Shown: one piece after another, positions 86-31,411 of the stretch
How the letters are laid out: each line of letters opens with the position of its first letter
Position numbering within the stretch: the first letter of the stretch is position 1
Assembly (NCBI GenBank): GCA_029008095.1
Contig: JAQXJB010000025.1
Location: 34,448-66,447 of the forward strand
Source: Clostridiales bacterium
GTDB lineage: Bacteria > Bacillota > Clostridia > Oscillospirales > Oscillospiraceae
Direction of reading: 5' to 3'
DNA length: 32,000 nucleotides
Made by a program: the position numbers and the translations under genes
The notes under the pieces: generated by a model
Seen by the model: the letters and a program-made list of their open reading frames with translations, nothing else
Database searches by the model: none
What the model was told of the DNA's origin: nothing

Positions 86-190
86 ATGTCATTCTGAGCC
101 CGCCGCAGGCGGTAGCGAAGAATCTCCGCACCAACGTGACTGCCAACATAAATCCAGCGCCGGAGATTCTTCACTGCGTTCAAAATGACA
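86..190 (+). repeat. ~100-bp TIR hairpin element, copy 1 (orientation A)
   Basis: ATGTCATTCTGAGCCCGCC...GCGAAGAATCTCCGCA...loop with ACTGCCAA...CGGAGATTCTTCAC...TTCAAAATGACA. Aligns with the copies at 5112, 5484 and 19983. Confidence 0.85.
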
Positions 191-5111: not shown

Positions 5112-5216
5112 ATGTCATTCTGAGCCCGCCAACGGCGGAAGCGAAGAATCCCCGCAGTAAAGGAACTGCAAATGTAAACCTTCTGCGGAGATTCTTCACT
5201 TCGTTCAGAATGACAT
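5112..5216 (+). repeat. ~100-bp TIR hairpin element, copy 2 (orientation A)
   Basis: ATGTCATTCTGAGCCCGCCAACGGCGGAAGCGAAGAATCCCCGCAG...ACTGCAAAT...CTGCGGAGATTCTTCACTTCGTTCAGAATGACAT. Flanked by TA on both sides. Confidence 0.9.
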
Positions 5217-5234
5217 ATTTTTATATTTATCTGT

Positions 5235-5457
5235 ATTATCGTTTCTGCTGTAAAAACCGTTTTTGCCCGGCGGAGGCACGCCTCCGCCCTACATACCAAC
5301 GATAAGACTTACGGTATTTCGTAAGGCAGGGCGATTGCATGGGGAGTTAGGAGTTATTGAGCGTAGGGCGAGTACGTTCATCCTTCCGGATATCTCATTC
5401 GGTGGGCGTAGGGCAGGGGCGCGCCCCTGCCGTGCAGTAACAATACGCACAATGTAA
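5235..5457. repeat. REP/BIME-like cluster A
   Basis: Starts with the linker ATTATCGTTTCTGC. Unit GGCGGAGG-CACG-CCTCCGCC-CTAC at 5269-5292 (minus orientation). Unit GTAG-GGCAGGGGCGCGCCCCTGCC at 5408-5431 (plus orientation). Degenerate units at 5321 (GTAAGGCAGGGCG) and 5363 (GTAGGGCGAG). Ends with GTAACAATACGCACAATGTAA. Confidence 0.8.
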
Positions 5458-5483
5458 AAATAAAACATATTAACATAAAGAAT

Positions 5484-5588
5484 ATGTCATTCTGAGCCCG
5501 CCAACGGCGGAAGCGAAGAATCCCCGCAGTAACGGAACTGCCAATGTGAACCTTCTGCGGAGATTCTTCACTTCGTTCAGAATGACAT
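5484..5588 (+). repeat. ~100-bp TIR hairpin element, copy 3 (orientation A)
   Basis: Near-identical to copy 2, including the left flank AACATAAAGAAT and the right flank ATATTTTT. Lies 372 bp downstream of copy 2. Confidence 0.9.
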
Positions 5589-5723: not shown

Positions 5724-7925
5724 TCAGGGAGTGAATGCCGCCCAATAGAAGCTGTAATCCTTCCCGTTCACGGTGAAGGTCAGTTTCGCATGGCCATCCC
5801 CCACCACGGTCACTTCCACTGTGCCGTCATCCAGCAGCCGATCCCGGATCACACTTTTGTCCGCATTGGTATAGGTGAAGTTGGTGATGGGCTTCCCGTC
5901 CAGCATAGGGATAAGCCGATAGGAGCCCTCCCAGCTGCCAAAGCTTGCACCGGGGTAGATGTCAATGCCCAGCCACTCCAGGGTGAAATTCTCCGGGTCC
6001 TCAGGCACGCACACATCTCCGTCGAACCCCTCCGTCACCCAGATAAAGGGATAGTCTTCGCCGTTATAGTGAATGATAAACGGCGTTTCCCCGTTTCCAA
6101 TCACAGTCACGGCAATGCGCCCGTCCCTGGTCTTCTGGTGATAAAGGATCCCGTCTTTTTCCACCGTATAGGTGAAGTCGGTCACTTTCTGCCCGCCTAC
6201 GAGCACATCGATATCGTACATCCATTTCCATGCGCCAAACCGCTCACCGGGTTTTACCGTAGAGCCTATAAAGCCCAGTGTCAGATCCCCCTTCGGGATC
6301 TCACCGATGGCTGAACTGCTGGCATCGGAGAACCAGCGGAACCGATAATCCACACCGTGAACGGTGACTGTGATGGTCTCATAGCCGCCGCCCACCACCT
6401 GTACCTTGATGCCGTCGTCAGCGGCGCGGCTGTGGGTCAGCACCCCGTTGCTGCTCATGGTATAGGTATAGTCGGTGATGACTTTGCCGTCCAGCATAGG
6501 GTAGAGCACATACTCTCCCTGGCCGCTTCCGCAGGTCTCGCCGGGTCTGACCGCAGCATCGCCGTATTTCAGCGTAACATTCTCATACTTAACGATGGCC
6601 TTCTCAGCGACCTTATCCGCGGCTGCCTGATCGGTGACATTGTAGCGCACCATCATGTTCAGCACGGCCTCCAGGCTGGTGTCAGCGCTGCACCACACAT
6701 CGGGATCATAACCCTTTCGGTCCACGTTTTCCATCACAAAGGGGAAGGTCAGGCTCACGCCGAAGTAGGCGTAAATGCCCGTGTTGGGCAGGGTCACGGA
6801 GATGTTGTTGCCGCAAAGCTGATAGCCGCCGGAATTGGTGCCGATGACGATGGTATTGTCCATGGTCTTCAGGAAGCTGAGCATACTCTCGCCGGAGGAG
6901 GCGCAGCCGTCATCCACCAGCACGATGATGGGGATGTCATTGGGCAGGAATGTGCCTGTCTGTTCGTAGCGCACGAACTGTCCGGCCAGGCCCTCGCCCT
7001 CGTTCCAGGCCGCGGCGCGCAGCTTGCTGTACCGGTTGCCCACCGCCACCGTGTAGCGGGCTTCCTTCCCAATGAAGCTCCGCATCCAGCTCTGGCCATA
7101 GCCGTCATTGCCGCCATGATTGCCCCGCAGGTCAAAGATGATGGCCTTTGCCGTTTGGGCCTCCTTGCCGCTGTTGATAAAGTCCTGCAGATCTATCCCG
7201 TACTCTCCCATGAAGCTGCGCACGGAAATGTACTGGATCCCCTTCGCCTGGAAGCTCTTCACATCCGGGCGGGTCTGGAAGCCGGAATAGGCCTGGCTCT
7301 CCGTCCAGCTCACGGTCTCGCTCCTGGTCTTGCCTGCTTCGTTTTGATAGGCTATGATGCAGCTCTTCACTTCCGTTCTGGGCACCAGAAGCACCGGCGC
7401 ATACACAAGCTCGCCGTCATCCATCAGGGTCAGTTCCACTGTTACCCGGGCATCGGAGATGGTTTTCAGATACCATCTTTCGCCGTTGTCCAGCTTATAA
7501 TAGCCATCTTCGCCTTTGTAGAGGCGCAGATCCTTTACATAAAAATACTCGTAGCGGGTAGAAGATTCATCCGGAGCGGCCCCGAAAATGGCGTGGGCAT
7601 CCCGGGCAAAGCTCAGCTCATCCGCGATCTTCCGCTCCAGGTCGGATACGTTCACGGTACTGAACTGCGCGACCCACTCCTTCACATTCTTTTCCGCAGT
7701 TTCAAACTTGTCCTGGCCGAAATAGTAGTAGGCGCAGTAGGCGGAGTGCAGCATCCGGAAGAACAGATCCACATCGCTCTGCGCCTGTGCACAGCTCACA
7801 GTGGTCTGATGCGCCGACGACTCCAGCAGGGAGCGGATCTCGCCGTCCGTCAGCAAGTCCGCCGTGGCGCTGTCATTTACCGTGTATTTGCTCAGCGTGG
7901 ATGTATCGATGGGCGCGGTCACCAC
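5724..7925 (-). CDS. S41 family (C-terminal processing/tail-specific-like) peptidase with three C-terminal ~95-aa repeats; probably the 3' part of a disrupted gene
   Basis: 733-aa ORF. S41-like motifs IIFDLRGNHGGN and LVDDGCASSGES are present. Three tandem repeats cover aa ~449-730. The frame is open only back to 7967, and an SLH fragment lies upstream in another frame. Confidence 0.8.
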   Translation of the reverse strand: MVTAPIDTSTLSKYTVNDSATADLLTDGEIRSLLESSAHQTTVSCAQAQSDVDLFFRMLHSAYCAYYYFGQDKFETAEKNVKEWVAQFSTVNVSDLERKIADELSFARDAHAIFGAAPDESSTRYEYFYVKDLRLYKGEDGYYKLDNGERWYLKTISDARVTVELTLMDDGELVYAPVLLVPRTEVKSCIIAYQNEAGKTRSETVSWTESQAYSGFQTRPDVKSFQAKGIQYISVRSFMGEYGIDLQDFINSGKEAQTAKAIIFDLRGNHGGNDGYGQSWMRSFIGKEARYTVAVGNRYSKLRAAAWNEGEGLAGQFVRYEQTGTFLPNDIPIIVLVDDGCASSGESMLSFLKTMDNTIVIGTNSGGYQLCGNNISVTLPNTGIYAYFGVSLTFPFVMENVDRKGYDPDVWCSADTSLEAVLNMMVRYNVTDQAAADKVAEKAIVKYENVTLKYGDAAVRPGETCGSGQGEYVLYPMLDGKVITDYTYTMSSNGVLTHSRAADDGIKVQVVGGGYETITVTVHGVDYRFRWFSDASSSAIGEIPKGDLTLGFIGSTVKPGERFGAWKWMYDIDVLVGGQKVTDFTYTVEKDGILYHQKTRDGRIAVTVIGNGETPFIIHYNGEDYPFIWVTEGFDGDVCVPEDPENFTLEWLGIDIYPGASFGSWEGSYRLIPMLDGKPITNFTYTNADKSVIRDRLLDDGTVEVTVVGDGHAKLTFTVNGKDYSFYWAAFTP

Positions 7926-8503
7926 CGCCTCATGCTCCGCGGAGTATTGTAGGAGATGATCGCCAGATCACCGCGAAGGAATTCCCCTTCGCCGGTGTAC
8001 TCGCCCTCAGTCAGACCGATCTTGTCAGACAGCTCCCACGCTGTATCCCATTTGAAATCCCTGTCGCTCTCATACCCCAGTGCGCGCAGAACAAAGGTGA
8101 GATACTGGGAGACCGTGACCAGTTCCTGAGAACCAAACAGCGTATTGCTGATGCCCTCGGTCAGGCCGTTGGCATAGGCGTATCCCACATAGGGCTTGGC
8201 CCAGTTGGGCACATCCGTAAAGGGCGTTGTCCAGGCACCCTTTTGTGCCGCTTCCTCCTTGCCCAGCAGACGCACCAGCATGGTAATGGCCTCCGCACGG
8301 GTGGGTTCACTGCCCAGATTAAACTCAGGCGACCCGTCGTTATGAGTTCCCGTCCCAAGGAACAGGCCCAGATCATAGAGGGCTTCCGCACAGGCCGCCC
8401 CCCTGTCTTCCTAAGCCGTTTGCTCTGCGGCAGACGCCGTCACAGGCAGGACGGAGCATAGCATACAGACGGCAAGAAGCAGAGTTAAGACTCTTTTCAT
8501 CAT
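7919..8503 (-). pseudogene. Signal peptide plus three SLH modules, N-terminal part of the S41 peptidase gene, interrupted by an in-frame TAG and a frameshift
   Basis: ATGATG at 8503 follows the RBS AAAGGATG. The signal peptide is MMKRVLTLLLAVCMLCSVLPVTASA. An in-frame TAG lies at 8411-8413. SLH-like modules follow (PTRAEAITMLVRLLG; FTDVPNWAKPYVGYAYANGL; FLRGDLAIISYN). The frame ends at 7919 and overlaps the S41 frame. Confidence 0.7.
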
Positions 8504-11646: not shown

Positions 11647-11750
11647 ATGTCATCCTGAACGCAGTGAAGAATCTCCGCAGGCGGTCGACATCGGCTGTCA
11701 AATCAATGCGGAGATTCTTCGCATCCGCCTGGGGCGGGCTCAGAATGACA
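11647..11750 (-). repeat. ~100-bp TIR hairpin element, copy 4 (orientation B)
   Basis: ATGTCATCCTGAACGCAGTGAAGAATCTCCGCAG...TGCGGAGATTCTTCGCATCCGCCTGGGGCGGGCTCAGAATGACA. This is the reverse complement of the orientation-A pattern. Confidence 0.9.
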
Positions 11751-11800: not shown

Positions 11801-11907
11801 ATGTCATCCTGAACGCAGTGAAGAATCTCCGCAGGTGGTTGACATCGGCAGACCAATCAATGCGGAGATTCTTCGCAACACGCTTTCAGCGCAGCTCAGA
11901 ATGACAT
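11801..11907 (-). repeat. ~100-bp TIR hairpin element, copy 5 (orientation B)
   Basis: Same arms as copy 4. The side hairpin here is CGCT-TTC-AGCG. TA flanks both ends. Confidence 0.9.
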
Positions 11908-11938: not shown

Positions 11939-14185
11939 TCATTCCGCGACGACTATGCGGATCTTGCCGCCCTGGTCGGGGCTGCGGTCATAGTAAACGG
12001 TGAGGGTGGAGGAAAAGCGGCGGGCGTCGTCGAGGCTCTCGAACCACTCGCGGGCTGCGCCGTTGTAGCACTGTACGTTATCCGCAACGGGGTAGGTCAC
12101 GCCGTCCACGGTGAGGGTGGTCACGCCGTTCACGGTTCGGAAGGCCGAGCGGCTGACGTCCTTGATGCGGGTGAGGTTCACGGCGGAGATCACGCGCCGT
12201 CCGTCAAGGGAGGCGACAACACCGGCGTAGGAATTATTATTCAGCACGTTCACGGGGTAGCTGTCATAGGTTGCTGCGCCGTCCTTGCCGGTGATAGTGA
12301 GCACGGAGCAGGTATACGAGCCGGTGAATTCATTCCACCTGTTCTCGGTACCGGTAGTGGCCGCACCGTAGGTGTAGCAGTCACCGGTCACGTCGTTGAG
12401 CACCAGCATATCTATGCGGCCCGCGTAGTCCTTGCGGGCATAGAGCACCTTGTCGTAGGATATCTCTTTAGGCAGGGAGGAGAGGGACACGCTGACGGGC
12501 ATGGAGCTTCCCACGCGGTCAAAGACCTTAACGGCGGGGCTGATGGCACATGAGCCATAGGTCATGGCCTCGGTGTCTATCTTTTCGGCCTTGATAGTGT
12601 CCCCAAGGGGGCGGACGGATATTTTTCCGCCGTTAGAGCCGGAGACTACCACCAGCTCGCCCACCAGCGATACGCCGGTGCTGACCGCCTCGCCGCTGAT
12701 GGTCATACCGCCGCGTCCGGCGGACAGCAGCTCAACTGTGATATTGCCGCTGTTCCAGCTTTTTACGATGCCAACGGCGTTGCCGGCAGCGTCAGCGGTG
12801 GCAACAGCGCCGGCCACGCGCATATCGGAGGTGAACAGCAGAGTCATCATGTCGCCCAGCTTAAATTTGGCGAGACTTTCCTGAGCGGAGGGAAGAACCT
12901 CAAAAACCTGACCCAGAAGCTTGATCTTCTCGGGGGAGGCGGTGCCGGGATAGGCGTTTTCATAGCAGCCGGTGAGCTTCACGTCGTTCACGCGGAGCAG
13001 CTTTGCGGCCTTGTCGTACTCTGCCACGTCATAGCGGCGCAGGTCGGAAACGGACGCCTCCGCGCCGTTTTTGTAAATCGTATAGCCCGTGGCGGCCTCA
13101 AGCAGAGAGGTGAAGGGATTCCCCTTCACCTCGTCCATAGCAACGGCCACGTTGTCGTTTGCGGCAGAGGTGGCGTAAAACAGCGCCTCAACGCTGCCCT
13201 TTGCGTCAAAATACACGGTGATATTGCTGCCCACCGGCATATCCAGCCATATGTCGCTCCAGGTCTTTATCTCAGAATCGGTATAGACCACGGTGGCGGG
13301 AGGCACGGAATAGCGCACTCCGTTGGAGTCCTTGAACCAGCTTGCCTCAATGACAGAGGCGGAAACGGTCGTTCGGCTGCCGCCGGTGGGGATGAATACG
13401 ATCAGCTTGCCGCCGTTTACCACCACGGTGCCGCGCTCGCCCACGTAGGAATCGGAGATGTCCACATCGGTCTTATAGGTTCCGGCGGAGGTGAATACGC
13501 CTCCGCTGCTGCCGTCGGCGGCCACGGCGTCGTTATTGAGCAGGATAACGTTCTCGGTGACTGTGCCGAAGCGGGAGAGGAACATGCCGCCGTCTCTGGT
13601 GTCGCACTGGAGCATGGCGCAGAAAAGCTCGGCGGCCTGACCGCGTGTGATGGCGGCATAGGGGTCGATGCTCAGACCCTTGGTGAGGCCGATGCTCTCA
13701 GCGAGGGTCATATAGCCGTCAGGCCACTGCATACTGGTGTCGCTGTCGCTGTAGCCCAGCAGGCGGGAGAGAATGGTGACGGCCTGGGCGAAGGTGATGT
13801 TCTGGTCGGGGGCGAAGAGGCCGTTGCCCATGCCGGAGATGATGGCGTTCTCGCCGGAGGCGGCCAGATTAATGTAGCCCCTCGCCCAGTGGGTGGAGGT
13901 GACGTCGGAGAAGATGGTGCGGCTGCGGTAACTGGGCTCAAGACCCTCCGCGCCCTTCATAATGATCGCCATCTTGCAGAATTGGGCGCGGGTGAGATGA
14001 TCGCCGGGAGCAAATCTGCCGTCCGCAACGCCGTCTACCACGCCCAGAAGGCGCAGAGTTTCCGCGGCCCGGGCAACGTCATGATCGGAGATATCCGTGA
14101 AATATCCGTCAGCCGCCAGCGCCGCCGGCATGGCGGATATAAGGAGCGCCAGCGCCAATATGAGTGCCATTATCTTTCGTTTCAT
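11939..14185 (-). CDS. S-layer homology (SLH) domain-containing cell-surface protein
   Basis: ORF 11939-14272. I prefer the ATG at 14185, after the RBS AAGGGAGGAAAG. Signal peptide MKRKIMALILALALLISAMPAALA. Three N-terminal SLH modules (FTDISDHDVARAAETLRLLGVV, FSDVTSTHWARGYINLAA, WPDGYMTLAESIGL). The remaining ~550 aa are beta-rich with no motif I recognise. Confidence 0.85.
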   Translation of the reverse strand: MKRKIMALILALALLISAMPAALAADGYFTDISDHDVARAAETLRLLGVVDGVADGRFAPGDHLTRAQFCKMAIIMKGAEGLEPSYRSRTIFSDVTSTHWARGYINLAASGENAIISGMGNGLFAPDQNITFAQAVTILSRLLGYSDSDTSMQWPDGYMTLAESIGLTKGLSIDPYAAITRGQAAELFCAMLQCDTRDGGMFLSRFGTVTENVILLNNDAVAADGSSGGVFTSAGTYKTDVDISDSYVGERGTVVVNGGKLIVFIPTGGSRTTVSASVIEASWFKDSNGVRYSVPPATVVYTDSEIKTWSDIWLDMPVGSNITVYFDAKGSVEALFYATSAANDNVAVAMDEVKGNPFTSLLEAATGYTIYKNGAEASVSDLRRYDVAEYDKAAKLLRVNDVKLTGCYENAYPGTASPEKIKLLGQVFEVLPSAQESLAKFKLGDMMTLLFTSDMRVAGAVATADAAGNAVGIVKSWNSGNITVELLSAGRGGMTISGEAVSTGVSLVGELVVVSGSNGGKISVRPLGDTIKAEKIDTEAMTYGSCAISPAVKVFDRVGSSMPVSVSLSSLPKEISYDKVLYARKDYAGRIDMLVLNDVTGDCYTYGAATTGTENRWNEFTGSYTCSVLTITGKDGAATYDSYPVNVLNNNSYAGVVASLDGRRVISAVNLTRIKDVSRSAFRTVNGVTTLTVDGVTYPVADNVQCYNGAAREWFESLDDARRFSSTLTVYYDRSPDQGGKIRIVVAE

Positions 14186-18107: not shown

Positions 18108-18704
18108 TTATTCCGGCATTATATCCGAGTGGACAAAAGCATAGAGGAGATTGGCGTAAAGCGCCAGGGCCTCCTGGTCCTCGCTGGTGGAGAAATGGGC
18201 GCAGCAATTCATTTCCTTCTCCACATCATACCAATACAGCAGGGCTTCGCCGCCCTCATTACGATTAAGTGTAGCGATATTGTTGCTGATGCGGACGGAT
18301 TCCCGGCTTTCCCATTCTTTTGTGCCGAAGAGCAGACCGGCCTGGTCCGCGTTTATCATGGAGTCCTTGTGTACGCGGTAGGTGACTGTGAGCCCCTCGG
18401 TGGTGAACCGCATCTCGCCTATGGGCTCGTCCAGCTCATCCTCGCCGATAATGCTCTGGCTAATGTTCTGGGCGGCGTCCACGCCAAAGAAGTATACGCC
18501 GGTCGCGTCATAAACGCCGGCGGCGTCGCTTTCTGCAACGGTGTAGCTTTCAGCAGGGTCGGGCACGGGCTCCTTCGAGGGCGTTGGTACAACATCCTCC
18601 TCCAGACCGGTATCCGGAGCTTCGTCCGCGGGCCGGTTGGGGGCGCAGGCCGTCAGAGAGAGCGCGAGCGCCAAAAACAGAAGAATTGCCGTTATTTTTT
18701 TCAT
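18108..18704 (-). CDS. Lipoprotein of unknown function
   Basis: 198 aa. The signal peptide has a lipobox (LALALSLTAC). A Pro/Glu/Asp-rich linker is followed by a globular domain with no motif I recognise. Confidence 0.75.
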   Translation of the reverse strand: MKKITAILLFLALALSLTACAPNRPADEAPDTGLEEDVVPTPSKEPVPDPAESYTVAESDAAGVYDATGVYFFGVDAAQNISQSIIGEDELDEPIGEMRFTTEGLTVTYRVHKDSMINADQAGLLFGTKEWESRESVRISNNIATLNRNEGGEALLYWYDVEKEMNCCAHFSTSEDQEALALYANLLYAFVHSDIMPE

Positions 18705-19850: not shown

Positions 19851-19931
19851 GCTTTCGCTCAGAATCTCCCAACTGACGGAACTGCCTATCTAAATCCAAC
19901 ACGGGAGATTCTTCCCGATGGTCAGAATGAC
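19851..19931 (+). repeat. TIR hairpin element, copy 6 (left terminus missing)
   Basis: GCTTTCGCTCAGAATCTCCC...GGAACTGCCTATCTAAATCC...CGGGAGATTCTTCCCGATGGTCAGAATGAC. Aligns to copy 7 except for the absent ATGTCATTCTGA end. Confidence 0.7.
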
Positions 19932-19982
19932 TTGACTTGGGGCTTTATCCGCAGTAAAGACCAAACGCAAAACCGAAAAACT

Positions 19983-20073
19983 ATGTCATTCTGAGCTTGC
20001 GAAGAATCTCCCATGTAACGTTACTGCCTATCTAAAACCAACCCCGGAGATTCTTCCCGATGGTCAGAATGAC
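19983..20073 (+). repeat. TIR hairpin element, copy 7 (orientation A, short variant)
   Basis: ATGTCATTCTGAGCTTGCGAAGAATCTCCC...TTACTGCCTATC...CCGGAGATTCTTCCCGATGGTCAGAATGAC. Confidence 0.85.
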
Positions 20074-20095
20074 GAGGAGTTTTACCTTAATTAGT

Positions 20096-20263
20096 ATTAT
20101 CGTTTCTGCGGCGGATATCAGAACAGGCGTGCAATGCACGCCCCTACGGTACGATGCCCCGGCGGAGGCACGCCTCCGCCCTACGTTTCATCCATATGCG
20201 TAACGGCAACTTCGTAGGGCAGGGGCGTGCCCCTGCCGTGCGGTAACGCTCCACACGATGTAA
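20096..20263. repeat. REP/BIME-like cluster B
   Basis: Starts with ATTATCGTTTCTGC. Units at 20126-20147 (minus; GGCGTGC-AAT-GCACGCC-CCTAC), 20161-20184 (minus; identical to 5269-5292) and 20214-20237 (plus; GTAG-GGCAGGGGCGTGCCCCTGCC). Ends with GTAACGCTCCACACGATGTAA. Confidence 0.8.
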
Positions 20264-20287
20264 CGACCAAACGCACAAGCCCCCCCT

Positions 20288-20346
20288 CTAACGTTACTGC
20301 CAATCTAACCCCAACACGGGAGATTCTTCCCGATGGTCAGAATGAC
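20288..20346 (+). repeat. TIR hairpin element, copy 8 (right half only)
   Basis: CTAACGTTACTGCCAATCTAACCCCAACACGGGAGATTCTTCCCGATGGTCAGAATGAC. Matches the right halves of copies 6 and 7. Confidence 0.7.
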
Positions 20347-20492
20347 AAAACCGAAAGTCTTGTACCATATAACGACACTATGAAAAAGCCCATCGTCCCG
20401 ACCTGCGGGCAAGCGGCGAGGATGGCAATGATCCTCCATGCGGGGGGATTTTTAATGACTATTTGTGCGGTGCTGCCGCATGGAGGAACGAT

Positions 20493-23743: not shown

Positions 23744-23771
23744 GCTGCTTCACATTTTGCGGAACATTACT

Positions 23772-23799
23772 GCACGGCAGGGGCGCGCCCCTGCCCTGC
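23772..23799 (-). repeat. Single REP-like unit between ispG and polC
   Basis: A perfect 20-nt palindrome GGCAGGGGCGCGCCCCTGCC lies at 23776-23795, followed by CTGC (the reverse complement GCAG replaces GTAG). It belongs to the same stem subfamily as 5408-5431 and 20214-20237. Confidence 0.75.
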
Positions 23800-23880
23800 G
23801 CTCATGAAATGGGCTTGCTCAAAGACGAGCGCAATAGCCCTAAGCACAATAATTCCTGACTATATATACAAGGTGAAAGA

Positions 23881-27923: not shown

Positions 27924-28027
27924 ATGTCATTCTGACCGAAGGGAAGAATCTCCGCAGTCGGGTTTAGAGTGGCAGTCAAATCAGTGCGGAGATTCTTCGC
28001 ACACGCTTCGCGTGGCTCAGAATGACA
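27924..28027 (-). repeat. ~100-bp TIR hairpin element, copy 9 (orientation B)
   Basis: ATGTCATTCTGACCGAAGGGAAGAATCTCCGCAG...TGGCAGTCAAATCAG...TGCGGAGATTCTTCGCACACGCTTCGCGTGGCTCAGAATGACA. The side hairpin is CACGC-TTC-GCGTG. Confidence 0.9.
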
Positions 28028-28053: not shown

Positions 28054-28188
28054 TTACATTCTTCGTGTCATTGCACGGCAGGGACGTGCCCCCCCCTGCA
28101 CGGTAATACGTTTTATCATTACATTGTGCATATTGTTATTGCGTTCCGGCGGGCGACACAATGGTCGCCCCTACGGTGTGATGACGCT
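28054..28188. repeat. REP/BIME-like cluster C (orientation reversed relative to clusters A and B)
   Basis: TTACATT...GCACGGCAGGGACGTGCCCCCCCCTGCAC (a degenerate unit at 28073-28103). A second TTACATTGTGCATATTGTTATTGC follows, then the unit GGGCGAC-ACAATG-GTCGCCC-CTAC at 28151-28174. Confidence 0.7.
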
Positions 28189-28370
28189 CACAGCAAAAAC
28201 GATAATGGGTATAAACGGAAAGAGCAGCACCGTAGGGGCGTGCATCGCACGCCCGGAGTGGAACGATGCCCACAGCAGAAACGATAATGGGTATAAACGG
28301 AAAGAGCAGCACCGTAGGGGCGTGCATCGCACGCCCGGAGTGGAACGATGCCCACAGCAGAAACAATAAT
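28189..28370. repeat. 82-bp tandem repeat (2 full copies plus a partial third), each copy containing a REP-like unit
   Basis: Units 28189-28270 and 28271-28352 are 81/82 identical. Each contains CAGAAACGATAAT (the reverse complement of the ATTATCGTTTCTG linker) and GTAG-GGGCGTGC-ATC-GCACGCCC (28232-28254 and 28314-28336). A third copy starts at 28353 and then diverges. Confidence 0.9.
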
Positions 28371-28389
28371 ACGGTCAAATGAAAAAATT

Positions 28390-28465
28390 ATGTCATTCTG
28401 AACGCCGTGAAGGAGCTTCGCACCCGCCGTTACATTGGCAGTCAAATTACTGTGGGGGCTCTTAT
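28390..28465 (-). repeat. TIR hairpin element, copy 10 (degenerate, right terminus lost)
   Basis: ATGTCATTCTGAACGCCGTGAAGGAGCTTCGCAC...TTGGCAGTCAAATTACTGTGGGGGCTCTT. Aligns to copy 9, but the arms have decayed. Confidence 0.6.
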
Positions 28466-28470
28466 ATGCC

Positions 28471-28495
28471 TGACTTGCAATAAAATTGCAAGTCA
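28471..28495. promoter_or_regulatory. Perfect 10-bp inverted repeat (candidate operator) abutting the -35 of the metallophosphoesterase promoter
   Basis: TGACTTGCAA-TAAAA-TTGCAAGTCA. Confidence 0.4.
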
Positions 28496-31159: not shown

Positions 31160-31178
31160 GTCATTCTGAGCCCGCCGC
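31160..31178 (+). repeat. Truncated left terminus of a TIR hairpin element (copy 11)
   Basis: GTCATTCTGAGCCCGCCGC is identical to the first 19 nt of copy 1 (88-106). The sequence then runs into the hairpin array. Confidence 0.6.
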
Positions 31179-31192
31179 TTTTCAAACGAAAT

Positions 31193-31411
31193 AAATCCCT
31201 TTCGGGATTTGTGAAATTTGCTTCGCAAGTGAAATACGCCTTCGGCGTGTGAAATGCCTGCTTATCGTGAGTGGCGCGCTTCACTTCCATTGTGCCGGGC
31301 ACAATACTTCACGGCGGCGCAGACGCTGCTTCACTTCCCGGCACAGCCGGGATACTTCACAAAAAAGCGTAAAAACATCGAAAGCACTTGCTGCTGCAGG
31401 TGCTTTTTCAC
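31193..31411 (+). repeat. GTGAAAT/CTTCAC-punctuated hairpin array, copy beta (complete); candidate structured ncRNA
   Basis: Three hairpins, each followed by GTGAAAT (31211, 31229, 31249). GTGAGT at 31267. The mirrored motif CTTCAC/ACTTCAC at 31279, 31306, 31329 and 31354 is interleaved with three more hairpins. The array ends in a 9-bp stem (31383-31404) plus TTTT. Confidence 0.75.

Follow-up and report, generated by a model that had tools for sequence, protein, structure and literature searches.

A 32,000-nucleotide stretch of a Clostridiales genome (assembly GCA_029008095.1, contig JAQXJB010000025.1, positions 34,448 to 66,447; hereafter the window) carries seven full and four partial copies of a palindromic repeat, here called X, which is about 105 nt long when full. 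Our analysis indicates that X is probably a dimer of a small palindromic module of the kind found in repetitive extragenic palindromes (REPs), with the tags of its two modules pointing outward. It would then be a non-autonomous intergenic repeat, selfish or structural, comparable to the REP doublets forming hairpins (REPINs) and to the Neisseria intergenic mosaic elements (NIMEs), rather than a transposon with terminal inverted repeats (TIRs) or an RNA gene. The structure conserved across bacteria is the hairpin of the single module, not the 105-nt hairpin, and what is copied within this genome is the dimer as a whole, spacer included. Throughout, our comparison with the CGTC-tagged REP superfamily of Di Nocera et al. 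(2013; PMC3733652) rests on the text of that paper.

Copies were located with a repeat finder, by direct reading and by an alignment of ten copies, and the genes of the window are those annotated with Pfam. Every copy listed in a first-pass annotation, which had been made from the letters of the sequence, is present (Table 1). The half-site pattern GTCATTCTGA, a 10-mer allowed at most one mismatch, matches 18 times in the window against 1.34 ± 1.2 expected; this count was reached by 0 of 100 shuffles, and all 18 matches fall within the listed copies. When only modules from other phyla were used to build a covariance model, it gave 17 window matches (E-values 6e−13 to 2e−5) at exactly the module positions of these copies, with nothing significant elsewhere in the window. 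All copies lie between Pfam-supported genes, as expected of the strictly intergenic, palindromic and non-coding family that had been proposed. The accompanying statement that they sit at nearly every operon boundary was too broad, as they occupy 6 of about 11 intergenic gaps, but it comes close for the larger gaps, since 6 of the 7 that exceed 300 nt hold a copy. When folded, each full copy gives a long hairpin on both strands (z −4.8 to −9.7), and most copies have runs of A on their 5′ side and runs of T on their 3′ side. A BLAST search of plasmid and phage collections with a full copy returned no match.

The module itself is about 27 nt long, folds on its own and has the consensus (Y)GTC-AYNCT-GA-(GC-GNA-GC or a longer hairpin)-GA-AGNRT-CTC, for example TGTCATTCTGAGCGAAGCGAAGAATCTC. 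In its fold, a 5-bp stem is followed by a tandem G·A/A·G step and then by 2 bp of stem that carry a GNA triloop. Two such modules face each other in the window element, tags outward, across a spacer of about 33 nt, and in most window copies one of them bears an extra hairpin in place of the triloop; apical inserts of 8-50 nt are also present in modules of other phyla. The first-pass annotation had divided the element into an outer stem, an inner stem and a one-sided side hairpin. The two stems correspond to the two halves of each module and the side hairpin to its apical extension, which does vary in sequence while staying paired, as claimed (CCGCC/GGCGG, CACGC/GCGTG, GCGCT/AGCGT).

For the covariation analysis, modules were picked on unpaired features only (GTC, the two GA steps and CTC) and matches to the search seed were excluded. 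All seven pairs were intact in 39 of the 51 modules obtained in this way, among which we observed the stem variants ATTCT/AGAAT, ATCCT/AGGAT, ATGCT/AGCAT, ATGTT/AACAT and ACTCT/AGAGT. Across the 42 distinct sequences, 93.9% of cells were paired and five of the seven pairs showed compensatory changes, values reached by 0 of 500 shuffles, and controls with slid positions were 16-50% paired. Only one or two stem positions vary, and these covary. The commonest apices are GCGAAGC, GCGCAGC and GCGTAGC, with ACGAAGT as a covarying form. The tag GTC, on which the modules had been picked, occurs in 42 of 42 and is preceded by T, C or G; module ends in the window mostly read TGTC, with CGTC at 20073 and AGTC at 19931. 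The first stem pair is A-U in 39 of the 42 modules and the second U-A in 37, and the 3-nt tail is conserved as CTC or CCC. Departures from pairing of the G·T type (6) and of the A·C type (7) are equally common, so that no single RNA strand appears to be selected. The sequence d(GCGNAGC) is an extraordinarily stable DNA mini-hairpin, a physicochemical motif rather than a genomic repeat family, and tandem sheared G·A pairs are stable in the context of 5′-Y-GA-R-3′ steps such as those flanking the module apex; by analogy, the stability of this mini-hairpin may be relevant to how the module is recognised. Hammerhead and K-turn readings of the CUGA...GAAG portion were considered and rejected, as C stands in place of G at position 8 and the 3-nt bulge is missing.

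Covariation had been put forward as the sign of a selected structure, and it is present in the module but nearly absent from the long helix, in which only 1 of 32 pairs is compensatory among window copies, and that pair is located in the side hairpin. The near-invariance of the long helix within the window says nothing for or against that helix. Across phyla, 39 of 59 module pairs join modules of different stem variants, and in these heterodimers pairing is 98% within modules and 84% between arms. With two thirds of pairs mixing stem variants, the long hairpin is not the conserved structure; the proposed three-part fold stands as a shape that either strand can adopt but not as one with demonstrated selection. 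One Planctomycetaceae metagenome-assembled genome (MAG; L023, L029, L072, L078, L104) contains at least five heterodimers made of an ATCCT module, a 9-nt spacer and an ATTCT module, which are nested in a larger palindrome (...CCAAGTTTGGCTGGCTGAC...AACTTGG) and so form a composite repeat around the module.

The distribution of the module was assessed in one genome per species with the exact 3′ arm GGAGATTCTTC-N5-8-TCAGRATGAC, and 120 of the matching stretches (836 kb) were examined. At least 17 phyla contribute at least 120 genome stretches with the exact 3′ module, and carriers were found in the Nitrospirota, Bacteroidota, Chloroflexota, Armatimonadota, Acidobacteriota, Pseudomonadota, Bacillota, Patescibacteria, Cloacimonadota, Planctomycetota, Verrucomicrobiota, Latescibacterota, Gemmatimonadota, Zixibacteria, delta-proteobacterial lineages, Cyanobacteriota and Actinomycetota. 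Cultured carriers include Flavobacterium, Pedobacter, Chryseobacterium, Allomuricauda and Anabaena, and four further stretches come from viral contigs. In total, 265 modules were found in the 836 kb against 32 in a reversed-sequence control. Some stand singly and others in tandem or partial arrays, but the most frequent arrangement is the inverted pair with the tags outside: the 120 loci hold 59 tags-outside pairs, 7 tags-inside pairs and 12 tandem pairs, with spacers of 5-111 nt (median 24 nt), and all seven full window copies are tags-outside dimers. Crude calls of open reading frames (ORFs) cover 83% of this DNA, leaving about 17% intergenic, and 77% of the modules lie outside them. Copy number varies enormously among genomes, and some genomes have copies inside ORFs. 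One such case, in a Bacteroidales MAG (L093, ~2040-2150), is an in-frame module following the signal peptide of a lipoprotein-like ORF (...CNKNSEILRSAQNDNNVQ...), an intragenic insertion like those of the RPE repeats. Further, the Latescibacterota and Gemmatimonadota share an element of about 150 nt that ends in a single module followed by GACATGCTTTGCAATAGCCATCG, which could be a structured RNA or the end of a mobile element that has incorporated the module.

The spacer behaves differently. Its ACTGCC core, described earlier as conserved, is indeed conserved among the window copies, but spacers in other genomes are unrelated to it. Metagenomes from the Joint Genome Institute (JGI) contain three occurrences of ACTGCC together with a module, of which only L133, beside GTAG-headed REPs, looks homologous. 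The ACTGCC core is specific to the lineage of the window.

These observations bear directly on the earlier suggestion that X is a miniature inverted-repeat transposable element (MITE), that is, an internally deleted insertion sequence (IS) of the IS630/Tc1 type, or of another DDE type, with 12-nt TIRs, which would be moved by the cut-and-paste activity of a full-length IS and leave TA duplications. Such an origin would account for an intergenic, multicopy element of about 105 nt with near-perfect inverted ends whose occupancy differs between related species, and TA does flank both ends of X2, X3 and X5. However, TA precedes just 7 of the 18 module ends, and there it belongs to the runs of A and T that extend the palindrome; it does not represent a target duplication. 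The supposed TIR is itself the module, an independent unit that is found alone and in tandem arrays in many phyla and folds on its own with covariation, and pairs often join different module variants. No transposase is encoded among the annotated genes of the window, as had been noted, and no transposase family recurs in the 836 kb around modules; likewise, none of the sequences examined contained an IS with module ends. Locus L052, with its inverted module clusters, was considered as a REPtron and rejected, because the genes that these clusters enclose are housekeeping ones, a Mur ligase and HtrA. We therefore regard a MITE as very improbable.

The Dxr protein of the window is 100% identical to one annotated in a 'Clostridiales bacterium' MAG. 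Five contigs syntenic with the window were compared, two from relatives with 91% identical Dxr (L127, L128) and three from relatives with 80% identical Dxr (L129-L131). The gap between cdsA and dxr measures 654 nt in the window against 27, 20 and 14 nt in syntenic relatives. No X half-site was found in the 17-21 kb of the relatives, against 18 in the 32 kb of the window, and the covariance model gave no significant match on L127 or L128. Occupancy thus differs between related genomes, as a mobile family had been predicted to show. L127 has GTAG REPs after polC (18350-18445), and in L129 other gaps are occupied by a distinct variant with a CGTC tag (CGTCATTCAGAGG...CCGAAGAATCCCC). The superfamily is therefore present throughout the clade. 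The X subfamily and its insertions are specific to the lineage of the window. We also observed that in L127 a nucleotidyltransferase gene (NTP_transf_2/NTase_sub_bind, 12635-13291) is inserted between rseP and ispG, which the window and L128 are without.

Within the window, similarity is arranged by cluster: copies 5112 and 5484 (X2 and X3) are 97% identical across 128 nt, 11647 and 11801 are 90% identical, and the three copies at 19851, 19983 and 20276 are 82-89% identical, with about 75-80% identity between clusters. Homology continues for about 35-40 nt past the 3′ end in four copies (tail at 5217..5251 on the plus strand, TTTTATATTTATCNGTATTATCGTTTCTGC), so the repeated unit is longer than the hairpin. 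At three loci we find the same recurrent order, namely X, tail, reverse GTAG REPs, GTAG REP, AACAATACGCACAATGTAA and X. Together, the cluster-wise similarity and the recurrent order clearly show that both local duplication and the copying of whole mosaics have been at work. The mosaics of dimer, 40-nt tail and GTAG REPs are lineage-specific and have multiplied locally as tandem duplicates that are 82-97% identical, and they explain intergenic gaps that are 10-30 times longer than in sister species.

The GTAG REPs of the window are a family separate from X that occupies the same gaps, and as canonical members of their kind they imply a system of the REP-associated tyrosine transposase (RAYT) type in this genome. 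An 82-nt tandem repeat at 28176-28339 consists of two copies, 93% identical, each with a GTAG REP and the X tail motif (ACAGCAGAAACGATAAT...). A promoter-like site at 5210-5239 (ATGACA, 18 nt, TATTAT; 10 of 12 matches) is made of the 3′ end of X2 and the shared tail, so that the repeat may bring along a promoter that reads outward. The window also has two matches to the Gut-1 RNA (RF01706), at 1-69 (62.5 bits) and 31184-31260 (78.1 bits), which are 93% identical to each other. Both directly adjoin an X copy or fragment and comprise three short hairpins, each followed by GTGAAAT. Being tagged and placed beside X, these hairpins look like another mosaic repeat of tagged palindromes rather than a single-copy small RNA gene. 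Just past the second match, four more small hairpins at 31262-31370 are each followed by (A/C)TTCAC. As this tag is similar to the Gut-1 tag GTGAA read in reverse complement, the hairpins may form part of a larger inverted arrangement. For annotators, X hairpins, GTAG REPs and probably the Gut-1 matches are repeat mosaics rather than genes.

Table 1. Positions of X copies, the repeats associated with them and a related element of other phyla; coordinates are those of the window unless a locus is named.
Feature	Position	Strand	Context and structure
X1, full dimer	86..190	+	upstream of rimP; extended module 87-127 (+), plain module 162-190 (-); ACTGCC in spacer
X2, full dimer	5112..5216	+	downstream of infB; modules 5113-5153 (+), 5187-5215 (-)
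X3, full dimer	5484..5588	+	modules 5485-5525 (+), 5559-5587 (-); local duplicate of X2, 372 nt away
X4, full dimer	11647..11750	-	between SLH gene and SDR gene (both -); modules 11648-11676 (+), 11710-11750 (-, extended)
X5, full dimer	11801..11907	-	tandem duplicate of X4 (90% identical); modules 11802-11830 (+), 11864-11904 (-, extended)
X6, dimer	19983..20073	+	between cdsA and dxr; plain modules without apical extension, 19984-20011 (+), 20046-20074 (-)
X7, full dimer	27924..28027	-	convergent gap downstream of polC; modules 27925-27953 (+), 27988-28027 (-, extended)
Partial copy	19851..19931	+	spacer and 3′ module 19904-19932 (-) retained; 5′ module degenerate
Partial copy	20276..20346	+	spacer and 3′ module 20319-20347 (-) retained; without 5′ module; GTAG REP just upstream
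Partial copy	28390..28465	-	plain module 28391-28419 (+) and spacer retained; second module degenerate
Fragment	31160..31178	+	first ~20 nt of extended module (TGTCATTCTGAGCCCGCCGC); ends just before Gut-1 motif
X tail, other sites	191-230; 20074-20112; 28354-28389 (reverse-complemented)
GTAG-headed REP cluster	5252..5470	.	between two X copies
Mosaic order, repeats	19966-20350; 28060-28480 (reverse-complemented)
GTAG REPs	5266-5292, 5407-5435, 20127-20184, 20213-20241, 23771-23800, 28078-28103, 28147-28175, 28230-28257, 28312-28339		for example CGTAGGGCAGGGGCGCGCCCCTGCC, CCGTAGGGGCGTGCATCGCACGCCC
~150-nt element with terminal module	L030 4190-4360; L047 230-400; L118 1310-1480, 1860-2030; L042; L095

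The gene order of the window by Pfam is rimP-nusA-ylxR-L7Ae-infB (+), S41/SLH, SDR, MBL, SDR (-), SLH-MacB-ABC-HlyD (-), cdsA-dxr-rseP-ispG-polC (+), three unknown genes (-) and marR (+), and no tRNAs were found in it. The S41 peptidase ORF (5724-7925) and the SLH-domain ORF (7919-8281), both on the minus strand, abut in different frames and could be one frameshifted gene or the result of an assembly error.

The positions of the copies among these genes are relevant to a second alternative, in which X would be selected as a structured RNA, whether a bidirectional terminator, a stabiliser of mRNA 3′ ends or an operon insulator, and would have spread through its usefulness. The hairpins are very stable on both strands and mostly framed by A-runs and T-runs, the window copies follow genes or separate them, usually with the same orientation relative to transcription, and E. 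coli REPs are known to stabilise transcripts and to terminate them. However, this orientation bias comes down to about five independent loci and is absent across phyla, where gaps holding modules are 95 co-directional, 33 convergent and 30 divergent, near the neutral 2:1:1, with no depletion from divergent gaps; wobble pairs show no strand bias either, and the long helix is without covariation within the window. A consensus terminator scan reports no full X hairpin, its only matches inside X copies being two weak ones to sub-stems on the minus strand (19902-19917 and 20044-20060). Three copies lie in the sense orientation in the gap separating cdsA from dxr, two genes that are 14-27 nt apart in relatives and presumably co-transcribed there. 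Strong termination at this place would be harmful, which suggests that X would not be a strong terminator in that orientation. Comparison with Rfam 15 likewise gave no family at the gathering score and, even at E ≤ 10, only the chance-level CRISPR-DR25 (E 2.1) and Pospi_RY (E 7.1). The role as terminator or stabiliser that the first-pass annotation had allowed for found no support in any test, and selection as an RNA seems unlikely to us. If X is instead a REP-like dimer, effects on transcripts such as 3′-end protection or weak termination would be secondary consequences of a stable intergenic hairpin.

We searched the surroundings of the modules for a linked gene. All-against-all clustering of the 2,514 ORFs from the 120 loci (836 kb) gave no family present in more than five loci, and the most recurrent neighbours were of the housekeeping kind (SDR, ABC ATPase, Mfd, release factor, LeuRS). 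As no gene family recurs beside modules, the repeat is not tied in cis to any gene. The absence of a linked transposase would also suit a third explanation, namely that the module is a site for a widespread host protein, with nucleoid, topoisomerase, replication-restart or RNA-processing proteins as candidates, and so serves as a domesticated signal of genome architecture. In its favor, the same letters recur in at least 17 phyla, down to the unpaired tag, the tandem G·A step and the tail, with just one or two variable and covarying stem positions, and gyrase, IHF and Pol I are known to bind to the REPs of E. coli. On the other hand, the closest relatives are entirely without X at syntenic sites, module copy number is hugely uneven among genomes with copies inside ORFs in some, and no candidate binding protein was identified. 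Such a patchy distribution argues against an essential shared function, an argument that also appears in the text of Di Nocera et al. (PMC3733652), and we rate a host-factor site as rather improbable.

We thus return to X as a REP-like dimer. In this case the modules would be recognised as single-stranded DNA hairpins by a trans-acting enzyme encoded elsewhere, such as a RAYT/IS200-like HUH nuclease or something similar, and further spread would occur by local duplication and by recombination between copies. Several points weigh against this interpretation. Transposition is a purely inferred step, as no mobilising enzyme was found in the window or in the 836 kb of module loci and CGTC-type REPs have no known one. 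In X4, X5 and locus L010, pairing between the arms is better than pairing inside a module. The empty sites come only from species with 80-91% Dxr identity, in which exact insertion junctions are unreadable; the relatives may instead have lost the element, or the copies may have multiplied by duplication alone. The near-identity of 27 nt across at least 17 phyla exceeds that of ordinary REP families and could reflect a conserved host factor. Finally, a stem of 5 + 2 bp with G·A pairs, a 3-nt loop and a CTC tail depart from the published CGTC definition.

A broader proposal is that the module is a single pan-bacterial signal, preserved nearly unchanged in at least 17 phyla because it is read as a single-stranded hairpin by a widely distributed putative enzyme or host factor. 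We hold this to be unlikely, though if true the module would be the recognition unit of a new transposase-unlinked system of mobilisation or genome architecture, and the question of how CGTC-type REPs spread would be answered. A near-fixed 27-nt variant with covariation and without a linked gene also provides a sharp search image for a mobilising enzyme or host factor, and the same search image flags spurious small ORFs that these repeats create in MAG annotations.

Among known repeats, MITEs of the TIR type (Correia elements, RUP and IS630-derived elements) are similar to X in size, inverted ends, intergenic placement and multiple copies. Such MITEs are bordered by target-site duplications, share their ends with a parental IS and never have ends that exist as free-standing self-folding units. 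X is without such duplications and its ends do stand free, and no parental IS was seen in the window or in the 836 kb of module loci. Closer parallels are found in the CGTC-tagged REP superfamily, which according to the text of its description comprises repeats with a CGTC, TGTC or CCTC tag, an 8-9 bp stem starting A-T, T-A, a loop of 4-5 nt and a 3-nt tail (consensus CCA), arranged mostly as tags-outside dimers with tandem and tags-inside pairs being rare (PMC3733652). The same text reports intragenic copies, no dedicated transposase and a distribution over five phyla, none of them Firmicutes, and it counts Neisseria dRS3 and Rickettsia RPE-4 and RPE-6 as members, the Neisseria units lying within mosaic intergenic regions (PMC3733652). 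As far as this text goes, the module agrees in having a YGTC tag directly followed by a stem whose first two pairs are A-T and T-A, a length of about 25-30 nt, tags-outside dimers, an intergenic location with occasional in-frame intragenic copies, a mosaic setting, many host phyla and no dedicated transposase; a short unpaired tail at the 3′ end is present too, though with another sequence. It differs in its stem (5 bp, tandem G·A and 2 bp, versus 8-9 continuous bp), its loop (a GNA triloop or an apical hairpin of 8-50 nt, versus 4-5 nt) and its tail (CTC or CCC, versus CCA). Counting the G·A steps as stem positions brings the length to 9, so the stem mismatch may be partly descriptive. Nevertheless, on the stem and loop criterion as worded in the text, formal membership of the superfamily fails.

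The peptide signatures encoded by the module are absent from the list of intragenic copies given in that text (PMC3733652). A full-text literature search with the module sequence and its encoded peptides returned only unrelated primer matches or nothing, and no repeat of this kind is listed beside Y1 transposases in the supplementary data of the HUH-classification paper. Even so, X can no longer be presented as new in kind, as the first-pass annotation had implied, since it shares the tag, the dimer arrangement and the missing transposase with the CGTC-tagged superfamily as described in the text of PMC3733652.

In architecture, X is most like REPINs, which also consist of two inverted REP units and a spacer, measure about 100 nt, fold into a long hairpin and are copied within a genome as whole doublets. 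REPINs differ in their tag, GT[AG]G as opposed to YGTC, and in having a cognate RAYT gene that they flank, whereas none of the 120 module loci showed a Y1 transposase gene flanked by the repeats. GCGNAGC apices with a GNA loop also cap the GTAG REPs of enterobacteria. The larger arrangement recalls the Neisseria NIMEs, units bounded by dRS3, and the E. coli bacterial interspersed mosaic elements (BIMEs), which are likewise ordered intergenic mosaics with small palindromes at their borders; the organism, the module sequence and the partner repeats (GTAG REPs and Gut-1 in the window) differ. By these analogies, X appears to be a variant not demonstrably described before, one that resembles the CGTC superfamily and would work like a REPIN or NIME unit.

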